From assembly GCA_021789225.1 (NCBI GenBank), contig JAJYJQ010000002.1, forward strand, positions 1 through 50,307: 50,307 bases of DNA. The letters are read 5' to 3'. The position numbers and the translations under genes are program-made. Of the stretch, positions 3,242-31,284 are shown piece by piece (the stretch's first letter is position 1; each line of letters starts with the position of its first letter). This DNA is from a bacterium (GTDB lineage Bacteria > Patescibacteriota > Minisyncoccia > Phycocordibacterales > Phycocordibacteraceae). The notes under the pieces were generated by a model. The model ran no database searches. It was not told where the DNA came from and worked only from the letters and a program-made list of their open reading frames with translations.

Positions 3242-4207
3242 ATGCAAACCATCGTGGGGGTGTTGCGAGGCGGGCCGAGCAGGGAGTATGAGGTCTCGCT
3301 CAAGACGGGGGCGGCGATGCTCGGCGCGCTTTCGAAAGAGCGTTTCGACGCGCGCGACATTTTCATAGACAAAGCGGGCGTGTGGCACCTGGCTGGGCGT
3401 GCAGTCGAGCCCGAGCGCGTGCTCCGGCAGCTCGATGCGGTGCTCATCGGACTGCATGGCGAATACGGTGAAGACGGGGAGGTGCAGAAAGTGCTCGAGC
3501 GCCATGGCGTGCCCTATGTCGGCGCGGATTCATTCTCCTCGTATGTTGCGATGCACAAGGCGCTCGCCAAGGCGCGGGCGCGTGAGGCGGGCTTGAAGAC
3601 GGCGCGCGACATGCTCGTCGAGCCGGCCAACGAGATACCGGTCATTGCCGCAGAGATCGTGCGCACGCTCGCGCAGCCGGTCGTGGTGAAGCCGGTGCGG
3701 TGGGGCTCTTCGGTGGGGATTTCCGTGGTGGCGGGGTATGCGCCGCTCGTGCGTGCGCTCGAGGCGCTGCGCGAGGCAGGTGCGGAGCAGATCATCGTGG
3801 AGGAATTTATCCGCGGTACGGAGGCGACGGTCGGCGTGGTCGAAGGCTTGCGCGGCGAGCCGCTTTATACGCCGCCGCCGGTCGAGATCGTCCCGCCCGA
3901 GAAGGCCGGCTTCTTCTCGTATGATGCGAAATATTCTGGCGCGTCCCAAGAGCTTTGCCCGGGCCGTTTCTCGAGGGCCGTCTCGGACGAGCTCATGCAT
4001 TCGGCGCGCACCATGCATCAGACACTCGGCCTGCGCCACTACTCGCGCAGCGATTTCATCGTTTCTCCGCGCGGCATCTACTACCTCGAAACCAACACTC
4101 TCCCCGGTCTCACGAGCGAATCGCTCCTGCCCAAGTCTCTCGCGGCTGTCGGCGTCGCCATGCCCGACTTCCTGGAACATCTGGTCAATTTGGCTCTGGC
4201 GCGGTAA
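3242..4207 (+). CDS. ddl: D-alanine--D-alanine ligase
   Basis: Typical Ddl N-terminus (VGVLRGGPSREYEVSLKTG), LHGEYGEDGEVQ, and an ATP-grasp C-terminal half (YYLETNTLPGLT). Confidence 0.9.
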   Translation: MQTIVGVLRGGPSREYEVSLKTGAAMLGALSKERFDARDIFIDKAGVWHLAGRAVEPERVLRQLDAVLIGLHGEYGEDGEVQKVLERHGVPYVGADSFSSYVAMHKALAKARAREAGLKTARDMLVEPANEIPVIAAEIVRTLAQPVVVKPVRWGSSVGISVVAGYAPLVRALEALREAGAEQIIVEEFIRGTEATVGVVEGLRGEPLYTPPPVEIVPPEKAGFFSYDAKYSGASQELCPGRFSRAVSDELMHSARTMHQTLGLRHYSRSDFIVSPRGIYYLETNTLPGLTSESLLPKSLAAVGVAMPDFLEHLVNLALAR

Positions 4208-4219
4208 GCTGTCCACGTT

Positions 4220-4240
4220 GGGCCGTTAGCTCAGTTGGTA
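4220..4240 (+). other. 5' fragment of tRNA-Cys (nt 1-21), orphaned
   Basis: GGGCCGTTAGCTCAGTTGGTA is identical to 4315-4335 of the intact tRNA-Cys gene. Confidence 0.9.
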
Positions 4241-4269
4241 TGCAAAGCATACTGCTTCGGCGCTCGGCG

Positions 4270-4417
4270 CAAATGAAAGTAGTTGTTCTTTAAATCACGT
4301 TTAGGACTCTTGGTGGGCCGTTAGCTCAGTTGGTAGAGCACCTCATTTGCAATGAGGGGGTCGCAGGTTCGAATCCTGTACGGTCCACCAAGCGCCTTAG
4401 GCAACTACTTTCATTTG
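4270..4417. repeat. perfect 16-bp inverted repeat bracketing the intact tRNA-Cys
   Basis: CAAATGAAAGTAGTTG (4270-4285) is the exact reverse complement of CAACTACTTTCATTTG (4402-4417). Confidence 0.95.
4315..4390 (+). tRNA. tRNA-Cys (anticodon GCA), CCA encoded
   Basis: Cloverleaf: acceptor GGGCCGT/ACGGTCC, D-arm GCTCAGTTGGTAGAGC, anticodon stem CCTCA/TGAGG with loop TTGCAAT, T-arm GCAGGTTCGAATCCTGT, terminal CCA. Confidence 0.9.
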
Positions 4418-4432
4418 GCCTCGCTTCTCGCA

Positions 4433-4488
4433 GTAGAGCACCTCATTTGCAATGAGGGGGTCGCAGGTTCGAATCCTGTACGGTCCAC
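4433..4488 (+). other. 3' fragment of tRNA-Cys (D-loop GTA through discriminator)
   Basis: 56 nt identical to 4333-4388 of the intact gene. Followed by TA instead of CA. Confidence 0.9.
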
Positions 4489-4492
4489 TAGT

Positions 4493-5098
4493 ATGAATGA
4501 GGTGTCGAAGCTGAAAGAGACAATCAACACCTACAAAGACTCTGCGGAGGCATTAGCACGAAAGTTCGACAGTATGGGGGTGCGGGAGGGTGATGTTCGG
4601 GAGGTGTTTGAGCTGCTACCTCAGAACCCGGACGTGCTTGAAATCGGTTGCGGAAACGGCAGAGATGCATCGGAGATCCTCAAGCACACAAGCAGTTATC
4701 TTGGCATTGACGTTTCTCCACAGCTGATCGCGCTTGCGCGAGAAAAGAATCCGCAAGGAACATTCGAGATCGCTGATGTCGAACAGTATGCGTTTCCACA
4801 CAACTTGGATGCTATTTTCGCATTTGCCTCCCTTATCCATTTGCCCAAAGAAAGTTTTCAGCGAGTACTTGATGCGTGTCGCGAAGCTTTGAAACCCGGA
4901 GGAGTTCTGCGCCTTTCGATGAAGCGTGCGGATATATACACCGAGACAACCAAGGAGGATGAGTTCGGTACGCGCACCTATTATCTTTACTCGGAAAAGG
5001 ATATCGAAGAGGCGGCAAAGGGGTACAGAATTCTTAAAAATGGTACACAGATCGTAGGGAAACAGGTTTGGTTAGAGGTGCTGCTTCAGAAAATATAG
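4493..5098 (+). CDS. class I SAM-dependent methyltransferase
   Basis: Motif I VLEIGCGNGRDA and post-I LGIDVS. The start is placed at ATG 4493 because the longer ORF (from 4352) reads through tRNA sequence. Confidence 0.75.
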   Translation: MNEVSKLKETINTYKDSAEALARKFDSMGVREGDVREVFELLPQNPDVLEIGCGNGRDASEILKHTSSYLGIDVSPQLIALAREKNPQGTFEIADVEQYAFPHNLDAIFAFASLIHLPKESFQRVLDACREALKPGGVLRLSMKRADIYTETTKEDEFGTRTYYLYSEKDIEEAAKGYRILKNGTQIVGKQVWLEVLLQKI

Positions 5099-5101
5099 AA
5101 C

Positions 5102-5518
5102 ATGAGAATCTTCCTCATTTGCAGCAAGGTGTTTTACGACAAGGTACCGGCAATACAGAAAGAGCTGGAGACGGCGGGGCACGAGGTTGTGCTACCGAAT
5201 TGTTTTGATGATCCGGGAACCGAAGCGCGTTACAAGGAGACGAGTGCTGTAGAACATGCAAAATGGAAAGGCGAGATGCTTCGGCACAGCACGGATGTCA
5301 TCGAGAATAGCGATGCGGTGCTCGTGTTGAATTTCGACAAGAACGGCATGAAGAATTACATCGGCGGGGCTACTTTTCTGGAAATGTACGACGCGTTTCG
5401 CCTTGGCAAGAAGATTTTCCTGTACCGCAATGTGCCGGAAGGCATGCTTGAGGATGAGATCCTCGGTTTCGAGCCCATCATTCTCAATGAGCGCCTGCAG
5501 CACCCCGATCTTCTGTAG
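5102..5518 (+). CDS. nucleoside 2-deoxyribosyltransferase-like fold protein
   Basis: 138 aa with a flavodoxin-like pattern: MRIFLICS..., DAVLVLNF, GGATFLEMYDAFRLGKKIFLY. This resembles the NDT/YtoQ-type family. Assigned from motif memory only. Confidence 0.4.
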   Translation: MRIFLICSKVFYDKVPAIQKELETAGHEVVLPNCFDDPGTEARYKETSAVEHAKWKGEMLRHSTDVIENSDAVLVLNFDKNGMKNYIGGATFLEMYDAFRLGKKIFLYRNVPEGMLEDEILGFEPIILNERLQHPDLL

Positions 5519-5541
5519 TACGATAGGGTTGCATTCTCACT

Positions 5542-5970
5542 ATGGCTGATGCATACGAAACATTCCACGTCGGCATCAATGTATTTGTGGTGCGAGATGG
5601 GATGGTGCTTTTGGGTAAGCGGAAGAACGCATATGGTGCGGGAACGTGGGGTTTGCCAGGTGGTCATCTTGAGGTGGGCGAGGCGATGCGCGACGCAGCT
5701 GCGCGAGAGCTTATGGAGGAAACGGGGCTGCGTGCAAAAAGCTTCGAATTCTCTAATGTCGTTAACGACGGGAACAGGAGCGATGGTCGGCACCGCCTGC
5801 AGATAGGTTTCATCGTCCATGGGGTGGAGGGCGAGCCTGTGGTGCGAGAGCCTGATAAATGCGAGGAGTGGAAGTGGTTCAGCATGAGTGCGTTGCCGCA
5901 AGAGCTTTTCCCGCCGCATATCGTGCAGATAGAAAATTTCCTGAGGGGAGCACCTTTTGCCGATGCGTAG
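5542..5970 (+). CDS. Nudix hydrolase
   Basis: Canonical Nudix box GGHLEVGEAMRDAAARELMEETGL. Confidence 0.85.
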   Translation: MADAYETFHVGINVFVVRDGMVLLGKRKNAYGAGTWGLPGGHLEVGEAMRDAAARELMEETGLRAKSFEFSNVVNDGNRSDGRHRLQIGFIVHGVEGEPVVREPDKCEEWKWFSMSALPQELFPPHIVQIENFLRGAPFADA

Positions 5971-5982
5971 CCTTGCGCGGGC

Positions 5983-6432
5983 GTGATACCATGGATGCAT
6001 ATGGAAGAAATCAAAGAACCGAAGAATGCGCATTTTGAGTGGACGCCGGACATGACGGTGGGGGAGGAGATGATCGACTCGCAGCACCAGCGGCTCCTGG
6101 CGCAGCTCAACAAAGTGATAGACGCCATGATTTATGGCGAAGCGTCGCAGGAGGTTGCATCTGCGGTTGCGTTCTTCGGACAGTATGCCGACGAGCATCT
6201 TGCATACGAGGAAGCCTACATGGATCGACGCGGGTATGCGGCTATCGAAGAGCATGAGAAGTGGCATCAAGAATTTCGTGATACGTACGCGGATTTCAAG
6301 CAGAAGCTCGAAGGGCACGTGACGCCTGACAACCTCCTCATTGAGATGGAGGTGTACCTCGGCAGCTGGTGGACGAACCACATCCTCCACGAGGACAAGA
6401 AATACTACGAGGCGCTCGGCCCGGCGATGTAG
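5983..6432 (+). CDS. hemerythrin-like metal-binding protein (bacteriohemerythrin)
   Basis: FEWTPDMTVGEEMIDSQHQRLL..., HLAYEEAYM, H..F and NHILHEDKKY give the His/Glu ligand pattern of the hemerythrin HHE domain. The start is uncertain (GTG 5983, ATG 5995 or ATG 6001). Confidence 0.75.
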   Translation: MIPWMHMEEIKEPKNAHFEWTPDMTVGEEMIDSQHQRLLAQLNKVIDAMIYGEASQEVASAVAFFGQYADEHLAYEEAYMDRRGYAAIEEHEKWHQEFRDTYADFKQKLEGHVTPDNLLIEMEVYLGSWWTNHILHEDKKYYEALGPAM

Positions 6433-6457
6433 GGGCCGAGCGGGTGCTTATAAAGAT

Positions 6458-7249
6458 ATGGAGGAATATCTTGCCTTTGCAAAATCGCTTGCAGAAGAAT
6501 CTGCTGAGATAGCTAGGAAATATTTCAGCTTTGAAATTGATAGCACCTGGAAAGAGGACGATACCCCCTTAACAAAAGCTGACACGGAAATAAATGATCT
6601 GGTTATAAGGCGAATAAGCGAAAGATATCCGGAACATAGCGTCTACGGGGAAGAAGGGAGTTCCAAAAAAGAAAATTCAAAATACATCTGGGTTTGTGAT
6701 CCGATAGATGGAACGATGGCTTTTTCCTGCGGGTTGCCGATATTTGTTTTCTCCATCGCGTTAGTTGATCTCTCAAATGGCCTGCCTATTTTAGGTTTGG
6801 TAAATGATCCAATAATGAGAAACATGTATTGGGCATATAAGGATGGTGGGGCGTACAGGAATGGCAAGAGGATATCAGTGCTGCACAATAACGATTTTAA
6901 AAACACCTATCTGAATACTGGCGCTTCGGGAAGAGCAGTTGGTTTTTCAAACTTGCCGTTGATCAAGACGTTGAGCGAAAAGAAATGTGCCGTGATGAAA
7001 TACCCTTCTTTTATTTACGGCGGCATTCAAGTTGCCAACGGGAAGTATGTCGGGGCTGTATTCTATGCGAAGCCTGGTCATGATGTGGCTGCTTTGAAAA
7101 TCATTACAGAAGAAGCCGGTGGCAAGGTCACCGACTTAAACGGAAATGAAAGGAGATACCATGAGGATGGCCTTGGCTGTATCGTTTCCAATGGAATTTT
7201 ACATAAAGAAATACTGGACATTGTGCAGAGCGGTAAATTAGCTGGCTAG
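6458..7249 (+). CDS. inositol monophosphatase family protein
   Basis: YGEEGS and WVCDPIDGT motifs. The start is placed at ATG 6458, because the longer ORF from 6341 overlaps the hemerythrin gene. Visibly AT-richer than its surroundings. Confidence 0.8.
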   Translation: MEEYLAFAKSLAEESAEIARKYFSFEIDSTWKEDDTPLTKADTEINDLVIRRISERYPEHSVYGEEGSSKKENSKYIWVCDPIDGTMAFSCGLPIFVFSIALVDLSNGLPILGLVNDPIMRNMYWAYKDGGAYRNGKRISVLHNNDFKNTYLNTGASGRAVGFSNLPLIKTLSEKKCAVMKYPSFIYGGIQVANGKYVGAVFYAKPGHDVAALKIITEEAGGKVTDLNGNERRYHEDGLGCIVSNGILHKEILDIVQSGKLAG

Positions 7250-7310: not shown

Positions 7311-7384
7311 GGGCGATTAGCTCAGTTGGTTAGAGCGCACGCTTCACACGCGTGAGGTCACAGGTTCGAATCCTGTATCGCCCA
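7311..7384 (+). tRNA. tRNA-Val (anticodon CAC)
   Basis: Acceptor GGGCGAT/ATCGCCC, anticodon stem CACGC/GCGTG with loop TTCACAC, T-arm ACAGGTTCGAATCCTGT. Confidence 0.9.
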
Positions 7385-7385
7385 C

Positions 7386-7456
7386 CGGGCTGTGGTATAG
7401 TGGTATTACGTACGCTTCGGGTGCGTATAACCCGGGTTCGATTCCCGGCAGCCCGA
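7386..7456 (+). tRNA. tRNA-Pro (anticodon CGG)
   Basis: Acceptor CGGGCTG/CAGCCCG, anticodon stem TACGC/GCGTA with loop TTCGGGT, T-arm CCGGGTTCGATTCCCGG. Lies 1 nt after tRNA-Val. Confidence 0.85.
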
Positions 7457-7461
7457 CTCGA

Positions 7462-7512: not shown

Positions 7513-8244
7513 CTATGGTCGGAGACTGCCAAGCAAGCCCTCCAACACGCTTTCTGGATACAGATCGCCTGGATAGATTTCGATAAGTTTAAATCCAAGC
7601 TTCTCGGCGAGCTCGCGTTTCTTCCTGATGTTTAGATCGTATGCTCGTTTTGCTCCCGCAAGGCCGAAGAACTCAATAAGCGTATCGCTTCCGATCTTAA
7701 AATCTGCGGTAAAACGCGTCTTCCCGTATCGAGTATGGCGCTCATGCGCTATGCCTTCTCTGGAAAGCAAATCGTCTATGATTTTCTCCGAGAACGAATC
7801 ACACACGTGGCCGTCAGCTGCGGTGAATTTCCTAGCGAAAAGGACCGGATTTGTCTCAAAACCCGCCTTCTTTATGGCGTTATTCCAGCTTCCAAATCTT
7901 GCTTGGTAGATATCCCACGCATTGAATTCGTTTTTCAAAGGAATTCGGCCGGTGCGCTGATAGAAATCCCTAATCTCATCCAGGAGTTCTTCGTCAGTGT
8001 ATTTCTTAACGAATTGATGGGGTCGTAAGCGTATCTTTATAGATTCTCTTTCCGAATTGCCTATCGGGCTGCGCTTGTTCCGGCGCGCCTCTACGGATTC
8101 TTTTTGCGCGGCAGTAAGGCCGATTCCTTTCGTCCACAGATGAGCCGTGCTCAAACTGATGTGCAAGGTTCTCGCTATTTCTCGGTGGGTTTGCCCACTT
8201 TGTCGGAGATGAATAGCTCTAGTTCTCTCTTCTCTCGGACGCAT
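7513..8244 (-). CDS. homing-endonuclease-like protein: N-terminal HTH, homing-endonuclease-associated repeat, C-terminal PD-(D/E)xK-like nuclease
   Basis: HTH (HREIARTLHISLSTAHLW). Repeat YTDEELLDEIRDFYQRTGRIPLKNEF...ARFGSWNNAIKKAGF. C-terminus ADFKIGSDTLIEFFG...RKKRELAEKLGFKLIEIY resembles Vsr/DUF559-type restriction-endonuclease folds. Confidence 0.65.
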   Translation of the reverse strand: MRPREERTRAIHLRQSGQTHREIARTLHISLSTAHLWTKGIGLTAAQKESVEARRNKRSPIGNSERESIKIRLRPHQFVKKYTDEELLDEIRDFYQRTGRIPLKNEFNAWDIYQARFGSWNNAIKKAGFETNPVLFARKFTAADGHVCDSFSEKIIDDLLSREGIAHERHTRYGKTRFTADFKIGSDTLIEFFGLAGAKRAYDLNIRKKRELAEKLGFKLIEIYPGDLYPESVLEGLLGSLRP

Positions 8245-25434: not shown

Positions 25435-26013
25435 ATGGAAAACACCACCGCACCGGGGCAGGGGGAGGTCTCGCCGAAACATCCGAAATTTGTCCGCTGG
25501 GCGCTGCTTATTGGTATTGTGGTCGTTTTGAACGTGTTCTTCTTTGTGGTGCAGCAGATTATTTTCCCCGCGCCAAAGTACGAGAATTACTGCCCGCAGC
25601 CGGTCAAGCAGGCGCAGACGGCGACCGAATGCGAAACTGCTGGTGGCGTGTGGACGGAGTATCCGCCGCAACAGGTGCCCGCACCTTCCGAGGCGATAAA
25701 ACCCATTCCTGGTGGTTACTGCGACTACTACACGAAATGCCAGCCGAAATATGAGGCGGCACGTCAGCAGCACAATCTCTACGCGTTCGTCCTTATGACG
25801 GTGCTTGGCATCGTCGCGCTCGTCATTGGCGTGGTGCCAATCGGCTCGTCTATCGTCTCGTCCGGTCTCTCGTATGGCGGCGTGGTCGCGCTCGTCATCG
25901 GTGCGATGCAGTACTGGGGCGATGCGGGGCAGTGGCTGCGGCTTGCTATCTCGGCGATAGCGCTCGCGGCGCTCATCTGGATCGGCGTGCGCCGTTTCCG
26001 CGACGAGCACTAG
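25435..26013 (+). CDS. integral membrane hypothetical protein
   Basis: N-terminal TM, a Cys-containing extracytoplasmic segment, then three C-terminal TM helices. Confidence 0.55.
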   Translation: MENTTAPGQGEVSPKHPKFVRWALLIGIVVVLNVFFFVVQQIIFPAPKYENYCPQPVKQAQTATECETAGGVWTEYPPQQVPAPSEAIKPIPGGYCDYYTKCQPKYEAARQQHNLYAFVLMTVLGIVALVIGVVPIGSSIVSSGLSYGGVVALVIGAMQYWGDAGQWLRLAISAIALAALIWIGVRRFRDEH

Positions 26014-26021
26014 GTGCACTT

Positions 26022-28847
<2,826 letters not shown>

Positions 28848-31141: not shown

Positions 31142-31213
31142 GCGCCTATAGCTCAATGGTAGAGCAACTGTCTTATACACAGTCGGCTCCAGGTTCGAGT
31201 CCTGGTGGGCGCA
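31142..31213 (+). tRNA. tRNA with anticodon UAU (formally tRNA-Ile2-type, AUA decoder)
   Basis: Acceptor GCGCCTA/TGGGCGC, D-arm GCTCAATGGTAGAGC, anticodon stem ACTGT/ACAGT with loop CTTATAC, T-arm CCAGGTTCGAGTCCTGG. Confidence 0.75.
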
Positions 31214-31284
31214 CAGCCTAGACATTTTCGTCTCGTGATGAATGTTATACTTCTTGAGCGGTACTCGAATAATCATCGAACTGA

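Follow-up and report, generated by a model that had tools for sequence, protein, structure and literature searches.

A complete tRNA-Ala(UGC) gene nested within a split copy of itself in a patescibacterial genome, most likely the product of a tRNA-replacing insertion

Within a 50,307-nt stretch of a patescibacterial genome (contig JAJYJQ010000002.1; the whole stretch is referred to here as the window), the tRNA-Ala(UGC) gene downstream of ddl is split in its D-loop by an insert of about 192 nt that itself holds a complete tRNA-Ala(UGC) gene. This split tRNA most likely represents a hitherto undescribed tRNA-replacing insertion rather than a bacterial tRNA intron. The explanation that we favor, with moderate confidence, is that a compact cassette encoding no protein inserted into its cognate tRNA gene, such that the inner tRNA works and what remains of the original gene on either side is a relic. 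Mobile DNA is well known to land in tRNA genes, and to our knowledge the invaders of these genes are kilobase elements that carry their own recombinase and rebuild only part of the tRNA. Unusual insertions are also known in the rRNA genes of the candidate phyla radiation (CPR). Searches of the full-text literature turned up no account of nested tRNA genes, nor of interrupted tRNA genes in Patescibacteria.

As proposed in the first-pass annotation of the window, the intact inner gene (4315–4390, forward strand, with an encoded CCA) lies between two pieces of the same sequence, both of which are exact matches. Upstream, beginning 13 nt past the ddl stop codon (4207), positions 4220–4240 are 100% identical to nt 1–21 of the inner gene (4315–4335) and end with the D-loop GGTA; counted from 4219, the match covers the first 21–22 nt. 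Downstream, positions 4433–4488 repeat nt 19–74 of the inner gene exactly over 56 nt, are followed by CTA and not CCA, and account for a partial tRNA match in Rfam (31.6 bits at 4423–4479). The trinucleotide GTA is common to both outer pieces, and the break falls in the D-loop between tRNA nt 21 and 22, with an ambiguity spanning nt 19–21. Against the 50-kb window, blastn-short places these two matches well outside chance expectation (E = 7e-7 for the 5′ piece and 9e-28 for the 3′ piece), as it does the 16-bp inverted repeat described below (3e-4 to 6e-4). The insert consists of a 74-nt left arm, the complete tRNA-Ala(UGC), and a 42-nt right arm, for a total of 116 nt of non-tRNA sequence, and over its 192 nt it has no coding capacity beyond the tRNA. 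By blastn-short, neither arm has a second copy in the window, nor does either resemble the local flanks or any other part of it.

The identity of the nested tRNA differs from that first assigned. Its anticodon loop, UU-UGC-AA, and the alanine determinant G3:U70 in its acceptor stem establish both the split and the nested tRNA as tRNA-Ala(UGC), in agreement with ARAGORN and Rfam (72.6 bits for the inner copy, which is presumed to be the functional gene). The initial call of tRNA-Cys(GCA), which is incompatible with the UGC anticodon and the G3:U70 pair, came from reading the anticodon one base out of register; the geometry described at the same time, a tRNA gene split in its D-loop by about 192 nt containing its own copy, holds.

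The arms surrounding the inner tRNA contain several recognizable features, all on the forward strand. Loci that we compared from genomes and metagenomes are designated here by L-numbers. At the left junction, a short hairpin, GTATGC-AAA-GCATAC (4238–4252), can be read from the sequence, in which the last three nucleotides of the 5′ fragment and the first of the insert pair with 4247–4252; equivalent hairpins occur in L002, L065, L070, and L028/L069, whereas no comparable hairpin was found at the right end, either in the window sequence or in unit folds. There follows at 4261–4267 the motif CGCTCGG, in which GCT can base-pair with A9-G10-C11 of the 5′ fragment and GG prolongs the stalk. The stalk proper is a perfect 16-bp inverted repeat bracketing the inner tRNA, as previously noted for this sequence, with one strand, S (CAAATGAAAGTAGTTG), at 4270–4285 and its complement, S′ (CAACTACTTTCATTTG), at 4402–4417; this repeat is internal, lying 29 and 15 nt from the insert ends. 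Between stalk and tRNA, the 3′ part (about 4302–4314) of the inner leader (4286–4314) pairs with the inner trailer (4391–4401) and so prolongs the acceptor stem, a pairing recovered in both inverted-repeat and fold analysis and forming part of a second inverted repeat (4302–4321 with 4380–4399) that joins leader and acceptor strand to the trailer side. The right arm closes with the junction segment GCCTCGCTTCTCGCA (4418–4432), which contains the conserved motif CCTCGCTT (4419–4426) and places a GCTT 9 nt 5′ of GAGC.

Comparison of the orthologous locus indicates where this insert came to lie. The gene order uvrC-ddl-tRNA-Ala(UGC) is conserved among relatives, with a single plain tRNA-Ala(UGC) gene 12–85 nt past the ddl stop in L004, L005, L006, L082/L083, and L084/L085, and with one extra gene between ddl and a plain tRNA-Ala in L086. 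The outer 5′ fragment of the window starts 13 nt past ddl, within this range, so that it is the split outer gene that stands where relatives have the plain one. A nested tRNA-Ala with homologous arms and both outer fragments is present in L002/L003, which derive from a Kaiserbacteria metagenome-assembled genome (MAG), HyVt-514, and from a second assembly made from the same type of sample, and whose Ddl is 74% identical to that of the window. Among 185,579 GTDB species genomes, the exact left junction was found only in the Kaiserbacteria MAG, apart from two chance matches, and the exact right arm had no match in JGI metagenomes. L002 additionally carries an extra unit of right arm and 3′ fragment with a 100-nt tandem period, which is the expected product of unequal crossing-over between the 56-nt repeats. 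In a neighbor-joining Ddl tree, L002 groups with the empty-site P0003 (77% identity) and the window falls outside ((P0002, P0003), P0006). The insert-bearing lineages are not sisters in this single-gene tree, which implies either two gains of the cassette at the same gene or a single gain with two precise losses; precise loss is easy because recombination between the direct repeats restores the plain gene. L082 and L083, two of the empty sites, encode identical Ddl proteins, and their sequences part exactly at the tRNA-Ala 3′ end, which is a rearrangement hotspot in the clade.

Nested units with similar arms also occur in other tRNA genes. A structural pattern, TAGCTCAGTTGGTA followed by a non-G, then 60–90 nt, then TAGCTCAGTTGGTAGAGC, matched 69 metagenome loci, about 25 of which are ordinary tandem tRNAs; in about 40, an intact tRNA is preceded by a stray 5′ piece of the same isoacceptor. 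The nested layout of the window locus is matched exactly by L024 and L078, which represent an identical unit in tRNA-Ile (GAU) recovered from two different samples, and L065, L070, and L075 in tRNA-Thr (CGU); in all of these, the 5′ fragment ends at nt 21 and the 3′ fragment starts at nt 19–22. The arms of the family share the junction hairpin that uses the fragment's GGTA, a CGCTC(C)GG motif 20–27 nt into the left arm (CGCTCGG in the window, L002, L065, L070, and L075; CGCTCCGG in L024), an A-rich stalk arm with its complement, leader/trailer pairing that prolongs the acceptor stem, and, in the right arm, C(C)CTCG(C/T)TT 7–9 nt before the 3′ junction in the window, L002, L065, L070, and L075 (CCTCACTT in L024). 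No other locus among about 140 compared contains the motif pair CGCTC(C)GG/CCTCGCTT. Left arms measure 63–74 nt and right arms 42–49 nt, with the exception of 121 nt in L024; right insert ends finish in TA (AGTA, GGTA, or TATA), and junction microhomology is 2, 3, or 5 nt among members. Arm similarity thus suggests that a single family has entered at least three tRNA genes (Ala-UGC, Ile-GAU, and Thr-CGU) in Patescibacteria-like genomes.

Within this family, it is the inner tRNA that is preserved. Inner tRNAs are canonical in all members, while the outer halves are defective in four of the six (L002, L024, L075, and L065). The L002 outer tRNA has C1.C72, A3-U70 (such that the alanine determinant is lost), and a D-stem mismatch; the L024 outer acceptor differs from the inner one at four positions and contains two mismatches; in L075, both the T arm and the anticodon stem are destroyed; and the outer 3′ half of L065 is unrecognizable. 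Of the remaining two, the window outer tRNA is perfect and 100% identical to the inner copy, and the L070 outer tRNA looks intact but is another isodecoder, with a 4:69 A-U pair where the inner tRNA has G-C and with three differing anticodon-stem pairs. The differences between inner and outer sequences in L070 and L024 mean that the inner tRNA did not arise as a local copy of its outer counterpart, and the decay of the outer halves in several loci means that the outer tRNA is not being maintained.

The junction-proximal parts of the arms have changed little. Between the window and L002, third codon positions of ddl are 31% identical (25% at four-fold sites), meaning that they are saturated, and yet the junction-proximal left arm together with S is 89% identical and S′ together with the right-arm junction segment 94% identical. 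The corresponding values are 97% for the inner tRNA, in which the only change is at a compensatory 31:39 pair, 90% for the outer 5′ fragment, and 93% for the outer 3′ fragment, compared to 45% for the inner leader and 62% for the inner trailer. Fourteen of the 16 positions of stalk arm S are conserved in L002, with one compensatory G-C to T-A change, and in L065, L070, and L075 the stalk is of other sequence with its complementarity kept. Leader/trailer pairing is likewise kept between the window and L002, as when CCA to CTA in the trailer is matched by G to A in the leader. As the arms have no second copy from which they could be converted, this conservation points to purifying selection; alternatively, the common ancestor of the cassettes may be much younger than that of their hosts, although the contrast with the leader would still show selection. 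Conservation of the arms is also independent of a working outer tRNA, because they stay conserved where the outer tRNA is defective. The similarity of the outer fragments can be accounted for differently. In both the window and L002, the 31:39 allele of these fragments is the lineage-specific one of the inner copy that they flank, as gene conversion or unequal crossing-over predicts, and the tandem unit of L002 shows that such exchange occurs.

Folding predictions are in keeping with a unit organized around its stalk. The 281-nt region has a minimum free energy (MFE) of −119 kcal/mol (z = −6.7 relative to dinucleotide shuffles), and in the MFE structure the outer acceptor strands are predicted to pair, with a long stalk below the inner cloverleaf, much as had been anticipated for a transcript of this region. 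The leader/trailer duplex has z = −5.2 in the window, compared to −1.9 to +1.3 for the window's five other tRNA genes; across the family, the values are −3.5 to −5.9 for the window, L002, and L065 and about −2 to −2.7 for L070/L075. For ordinary tRNA genes of the same genomes and for 13 tandem-tRNA controls, z is near 0, and we thus rejected the possibility that such a stalk is a general feature of tRNA genes here. When units were folded with the inner tRNA swapped for a tetraloop, a recurrent fold was predicted in which the D-arm part of the 5′ fragment lies in a local hairpin closed by pairing of A9-G10-C11 with the GCT of CGCTCGG, and the right-arm GCTT, 7–9 nt before the GAGC of the 3′ fragment, could mimic the D-stem 5′ strand. 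In these models, the arm hairpins would insulate the orphan fragments from mispairing with the inner tRNA and offer a long duplex to RNase III, but equally they could be recognition structures of a DNA insertion reaction. An excess of G.U over A.C apposition (27/7 in the sense strand) was considered as a sign of selection at the RNA level and dropped, as the antisense mirror was equally skewed (22/6) at similar duplex energies and the apparent signal is algorithmic. With respect to expression, the units of L002 and L078 lack internal terminators but have them past their last 3′ fragment, and neither a promoter nor a terminator is predicted inside the window unit. Expression of the inner tRNA from the old transcription unit fits both the terminator positions and the lack of an internal promoter.

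Taken together, these data are best accounted for by the following series of events. A hairpin-shaped non-coding cassette would have entered the D-loop of the resident tRNA-Ala(UGC) gene past ddl, between nt 21 and 22, with 2–5 nt of microhomology. The inner tRNA would then be the working gene, held at the tip of a stalk made of leader/trailer pairing and the 16-bp S/S′ helix, and would probably be transcribed from the old unit and freed by ordinary tRNA end-processing, perhaps after RNase III has cut the stalk. The outer halves would represent the disrupted original gene, yielding no functional tRNA and kept similar to the inner copy by gene conversion or unequal crossing-over between the direct repeats. 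From the above we infer insertion at the DNA level by a mobile or transferable unit and a working role for the inner tRNA alone, with the conserved arms needed to fold or insulate the orphan pieces, to direct processing, or to enable the insertion reaction.

Several observations weigh against this explanation. The outer halves are 100% intact in the window, and the outer fragments of the window and L002 are 90–93% identical despite saturated divergence of their hosts, a similarity that could stem from selection on the outer tRNA instead of gene conversion. It also needs explaining that the cargo always matches the tRNA that it splits, for which lethality of mismatched insertions or conversion by the outer halves could be responsible. 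The mobility of the cassette is deduced from its distribution: no free or donor form was encountered, nor a second copy in the 50-kb window, nor any copy on viral, phage, or plasmid sequence. On viral contigs, the structural pattern returned only ordinary tandem tRNAs and the left-arm signature gave 58 chance matches in coding DNA, while nothing in phage and plasmid records was significantly similar to the left arm. None of the cassettes is associated with a transposase, integrase, or homing endonuclease, and the neighbors are housekeeping genes. Finally, the search pattern demanded an intact, GGTA-ending 5′ fragment over 14 nt, meaning that the shared breakpoint and the intact D-arm part of this fragment are partly a matter of ascertainment, although L002 was found independently of the pattern.

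One alternative is an interruption resolved at the RNA level, in which the unit is transcribed as a whole, the stalk is cut (for instance by RNase III, as in rRNA intervening sequences), the inner tRNA is freed, and the outer halves are re-ligated as exons of an intron or work as a two-piece tRNA joined through its acceptor and D stems, with both tRNAs functional and the arms acting as processing signals. The MFE structure with its paired outer acceptor strands and long stalk (z = −6.7), the perfect outer tRNA of the window and seemingly intact one of L070, the strong constraint on the junction-proximal arms, and the 90–93% identity of the outer fragments between the window and L002 would all suit such an interpretation, as would an insertion point at positions 20–21, which belong to the variable region of the D-loop, and the occurrence of other insertions in structural RNA genes of these genomes, such as the 16S intron of L078. 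However, the outer tRNA is defective in L002, L024, L075, and L065, where the arms are nonetheless conserved, and the sequence shows no splicing signature. Group I introns are the only well-established interruptions of bacterial tRNA genes (bioRxiv 10.1101/2020.01.27.920355); these lie in the anticodon loop, self-splice by way of a core of 200 or more nt, and have U at position −1 and a terminal G, unlike the D-loop break and 116 nt of non-tRNA sequence seen here. A cmscan search of 3500–5500 at E ≤ 1 returned tRNA matches and one chance match, and no group I core or other Rfam ribozyme, and we rejected a ribozyme of either kind on this result. In the window, the exonic −1 U and the terminal intron G are mutually exclusive, as an intron ending in G (..CGCAG) leaves an exon ending at G19 and an exon ending at U20 leaves an intron ending in U, and the L070/L075 inserts end in ..ACTTA(TA), with no terminal G. 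The non-canonical introns and the split or permuted tRNA genes of Archaea and Cyanidioschyzon include interruptions of the D-arm (PMC4033280, PMC3218864, PMC3728597) and resemble the window locus in breaking outside the anticodon loop and in joining pieces through leader/trailer pairing. Those systems nevertheless need a bulge-helix-bulge motif and a splicing endonuclease and hold no second tRNA inside, and the host here is a bacterium. A scripted search covering both mirror geometries and all junction registers found no bulge-helix-bulge in the window, L002, L024, L075, or L065, so none is common to the junctions; the single match, in L070, is absent from its close relative L075. In addition, the 50-kb window, which is part of the genome, encodes no RtcB or endonuclease. 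We thus consider an interruption resolved at the RNA level to be quite unlikely, and the re-joining of the outer halves in an intron-like transcript, one of the possibilities raised in the first-pass annotation, is not supported. Cleavage by RNase III that leaves a two-piece outer tRNA could still apply to the window itself, whose outer halves are perfect.

Scenarios at the DNA level other than the insertion of a small cassette were also evaluated. The locus might be what is left of a larger, integrase-bearing element carrying tRNA sequence that integrated at the tRNA gene, or of two such events, with later deletion of the body leaving only short arms and att-like pieces. Integrated DNA flanked by partial copies of a tRNA is a known signature of integrative elements, as in Thermococcales (PMC9897764), and at the archaeal Caldiarchaeum tRNA-Thr locus a 5′ fragment lies upstream of a new tRNA copy (PMC3293823). 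As in these cases, an intact tRNA here stands beside orphan fragments, with exact direct tRNA repeats of 21–22 and 56 nt flanking the insert, the incoming DNA supplies the working tRNA, and presence or absence varies among relatives; the 3′ end of tRNA-Ala is, moreover, a rearrangement hotspot in this clade. The elements in those cases, however, are kilobases long, encode a recombinase, and duplicate one side of the tRNA, whereas the window unit is 116 nt of non-coding sequence plus a tRNA, splits the D-loop, has fragments on both sides, and bears a conserved stalk. The usual sites of integrase crossover are the 3′ end and the anticodon and T loops. Here, the two fragments share one D-loop break position, the arms form a single complementary stalk around the tRNA, no integrase or recombinase, even as a remnant, is present in the 192-nt insert or near any family member, and independent deletions would not give five or six independent loci with small homologous arms. 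Such a remnant is accordingly unlikely, and the related idea of two recombination scars, which had been put forward for this sequence, is a poor fit because the arms behave as one conserved unit with a common break position. A purely local rearrangement without foreign DNA, in which slippage or template switching duplicated the gene and made the palindromic arms, would explain the identity of inner and outer sequences in the window, the tandem amplification of tRNA fragments in L002, L033, L028/L069, and others, and the 2–5 nt of junction microhomology, which is typical of template switching. It would not explain why the arms are homologous across different tRNA genes and organisms yet resemble neither the local flanks nor the rest of the window, or why L070/L075 and L024 have an inner tRNA that is another isodecoder than the outer one, and we regard it as distinctly improbable. 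An assembly artefact from repeats or strain mixtures, also suggested at first, is very unlikely indeed: although the window locus rests on a single MEGAHIT contig and repeats are present, these repeats (21 and 56 nt) are shorter than the final k-mer (k = 141), and the same homologous architecture is found in independent assemblies, samples, and assemblers (L002/L003, L024/L078, L070, L075, and L065).

How the unit relates to other small non-coding insertions is also informative. The first-pass annotation had suggested an element bounded by terminal inverted repeats (TIRs) that carries a tRNA and has a GTA target duplication; a tRNA-carrying insertion is indeed closest to the evidence, but the 16-bp inverted repeat lies inside the insert, whose ends share inverted repeats of 2–4 nt at most, and the microhomology of 2, 3, or 5 nt is not a fixed target duplication. 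Palindrome-associated transposable elements (PATEs, of IS200/IS605 type) and miniature inverted-repeat transposable elements (MITEs) are small, non-coding, and rich in hairpins, and IS200/IS605 elements insert on the 3′ side of a particular short sequence and do not duplicate their target. Similarly, the inserts described here are small, hairpin-rich, and non-coding, follow GGTA (as the search pattern required), and have right ends in TA. They differ from PATEs and MITEs, however, in having no terminal inverted repeat longer than 4 nt, no fixed duplication, and no multiple copies in the window, and we know of no PATE or MITE that carries a tRNA gene matching its target. Intervening sequences (IVSs) of bacterial 23S and 16S rRNA genes (Salmonella, Leptospira, Campylobacter) offer a closer parallel in shape. 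IVSs are protein-less, sporadic among relatives, and removed by RNase III without re-ligation, such that the host rRNA is functional in pieces, and they carry no gene at the tip. Like them, the window unit is an extended helix in a loop of a structural RNA, bounded by inverted repeats (the leader/trailer and S/S′ stalk), sporadic, and protein-less; unlike them, it sits in a tRNA, holds a complete tRNA at its tip, and is flanked by halves that decay in several lineages. By analogy, then, the unit resembles in function an integrative element cut to its logical minimum and in shape an rRNA intervening sequence, and it fits the definitions of neither group I introns, protein-spliced introns, TIR transposons and MITEs, nor integrase-bearing islands. 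A further reading, which we consider unlikely, is a self-contained genetic unit of a new kind, a protein-less "tRNA intervening sequence" of Patescibacteria, with arms that are either RNA processing signals, one transcript giving the freed inner tRNA and a rejoined or two-piece outer tRNA, or recognition hairpins of a single-strand or hairpin-dependent insertion machinery homing to D-loops.

A number of arrangements related to these cassettes were observed among the compared loci. In L024/L078 (reverse strand), the spacer that follows a 16S rRNA gene contains the tRNA-Ile cassette, and the 3′ region of that 16S gene is itself split by a LAGLIDADG-encoding intron, with a borderline Rfam match to group II D1-D4 at the start of the open reading frame (ORF), and the terminator past the cassette is duplicated about 170 nt further on. 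This LAGLIDADG gene was considered as the enzyme of the cassette and rejected, being encoded in the 16S rRNA intron; it is unrelated to the HNH-repeat ORF of the window. L070 (reverse strand, about 928–1560 of the reversed locus) contains two layers: upstream of the first nested unit is an older, degenerate 5′ fragment (GCCATCTTAGCTGTTTTGGTA), and downstream of it are another right arm and a decayed 3′ fragment. Successive insertions, or unequal crossing-over to either side, could have produced this. A perfect palindrome of 20 nt (CCTGCCTGCCGGCAGGCAGG), in some cases with extra internal bases, lies exactly between tRNA nt 21 and 22 of truncated pseudo-copies at L012, L026/L058, L040/L061, L052, L030/L044, L035, and L046, with an intact copy just downstream; the pseudo-copies are of Thr-CGU, Thr-UGU, Ala-UGC, Lys-CUU, Ile-UAU, and Thr-GGU, and the palindrome has the look of another insert, made of a hairpin alone, that uses this D-loop position too. 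L030/L044 (tRNA-Ile UAU) and L012 (tRNA-Thr CGU) also contain nested cassettes broken near the anticodon loop, the outer pieces of L030/L044 being nt 1–37 and nt 34–68, with a strong leader/trailer stalk (z = −3.8 and −6.6) and without the CGCTCGG/CCTCGCTT motifs, suggesting that the design of a replacement tRNA on a stalk extends beyond one family or breakpoint. Tandem arrays of 5′ fragments, each with a short hairpin, precede an intact tRNA in L033, L028/L069, L015, L039, and L060, with no 3′ fragments downstream; the array of L033 has a period of 76 nt and four or more units, and that of L028/L069 a period of 42 nt.

The window belongs to a 66-kb MEGAHIT contig of an ENA metagenome assembly (ERZ27233565). 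Its remainder resembles an ordinary small-genome chromosome, encoding uvrC, ddl, ATP synthase, leucyl-tRNA synthetase, RecG, and type IV pilus genes, and the closest proteins to its Ddl are labeled Kaiserbacteria, Paceibacterota, or Patescibacteria. Over these 50 kb of the genome, no integrase, transposase, Y1 transposase, RNA ligase/RtcB, EndA, or other splicing endonuclease was found among the genes. The source gene model at 4352–5098 (forward strand, 248 aa) begins inside the inner tRNA and runs through the right arm and 3′ fragment; its methyltransferase domain starts about 48 residues past an in-frame ATG at 4493, which is likely the true start. From 4493 to 7249, about 2.8 kb encoding the methyltransferase, a hypothetical protein, a NUDIX protein, a hemerythrin, and an inositol monophosphatase part tRNA-Ala from tRNA-Val, which are adjacent in L006, L084, and L086. 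tRNA-Val(CAC) and tRNA-Pro(CGG) (7311–7457) have zero spacer, with ARAGORN coordinates overlapping by one base at 7386, as is also the case in L005. An ORF on the reverse strand (7513–8244), with an HTH_23 domain and a "homing endonuclease associated repeat" (PF18780) but no recognizable nuclease domain, sits between tRNA-Pro(CGG) and tRNA-Pro(GGG), which are only about 96 nt apart in L006, and is a second sign of mobile DNA in the tRNA cluster of the window. A tRNA-Ile with anticodon UAU, which is uncommon in bacteria, lies at 31142–31214, the same isoacceptor being present in L030, L037, and L044, and the leucyl-tRNA synthetase (25932–28847, forward strand) has a NUDIX match at residues 444–539, inserted past the editing domain.

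In conclusion, a tRNA gene that is essential and of single-copy type, in a reduced genome, is split by a non-coding unit of about 190 nt, which makes up for the damage with a whole replacement on a conserved stalk. In practical terms, nested loci of this kind yield spurious tRNA pseudogene calls and over-extended ORF calls, as in the 248-aa methyltransferase model. If the interruption were resolved at the RNA level, it would be the first non-group-I bacterial tRNA interruption of that sort, and if the arms are RNA processing signals, the insertions known from CPR rRNA genes would be extended to tRNA. If the arms are instead recognition hairpins of an insertion machinery, that machinery would always bring a replacement for the gene that it destroys, and if the cassettes are mobile, they would represent a minimal self-compensating element and provide a route for the horizontal exchange of tRNA alleles among Patescibacteria.

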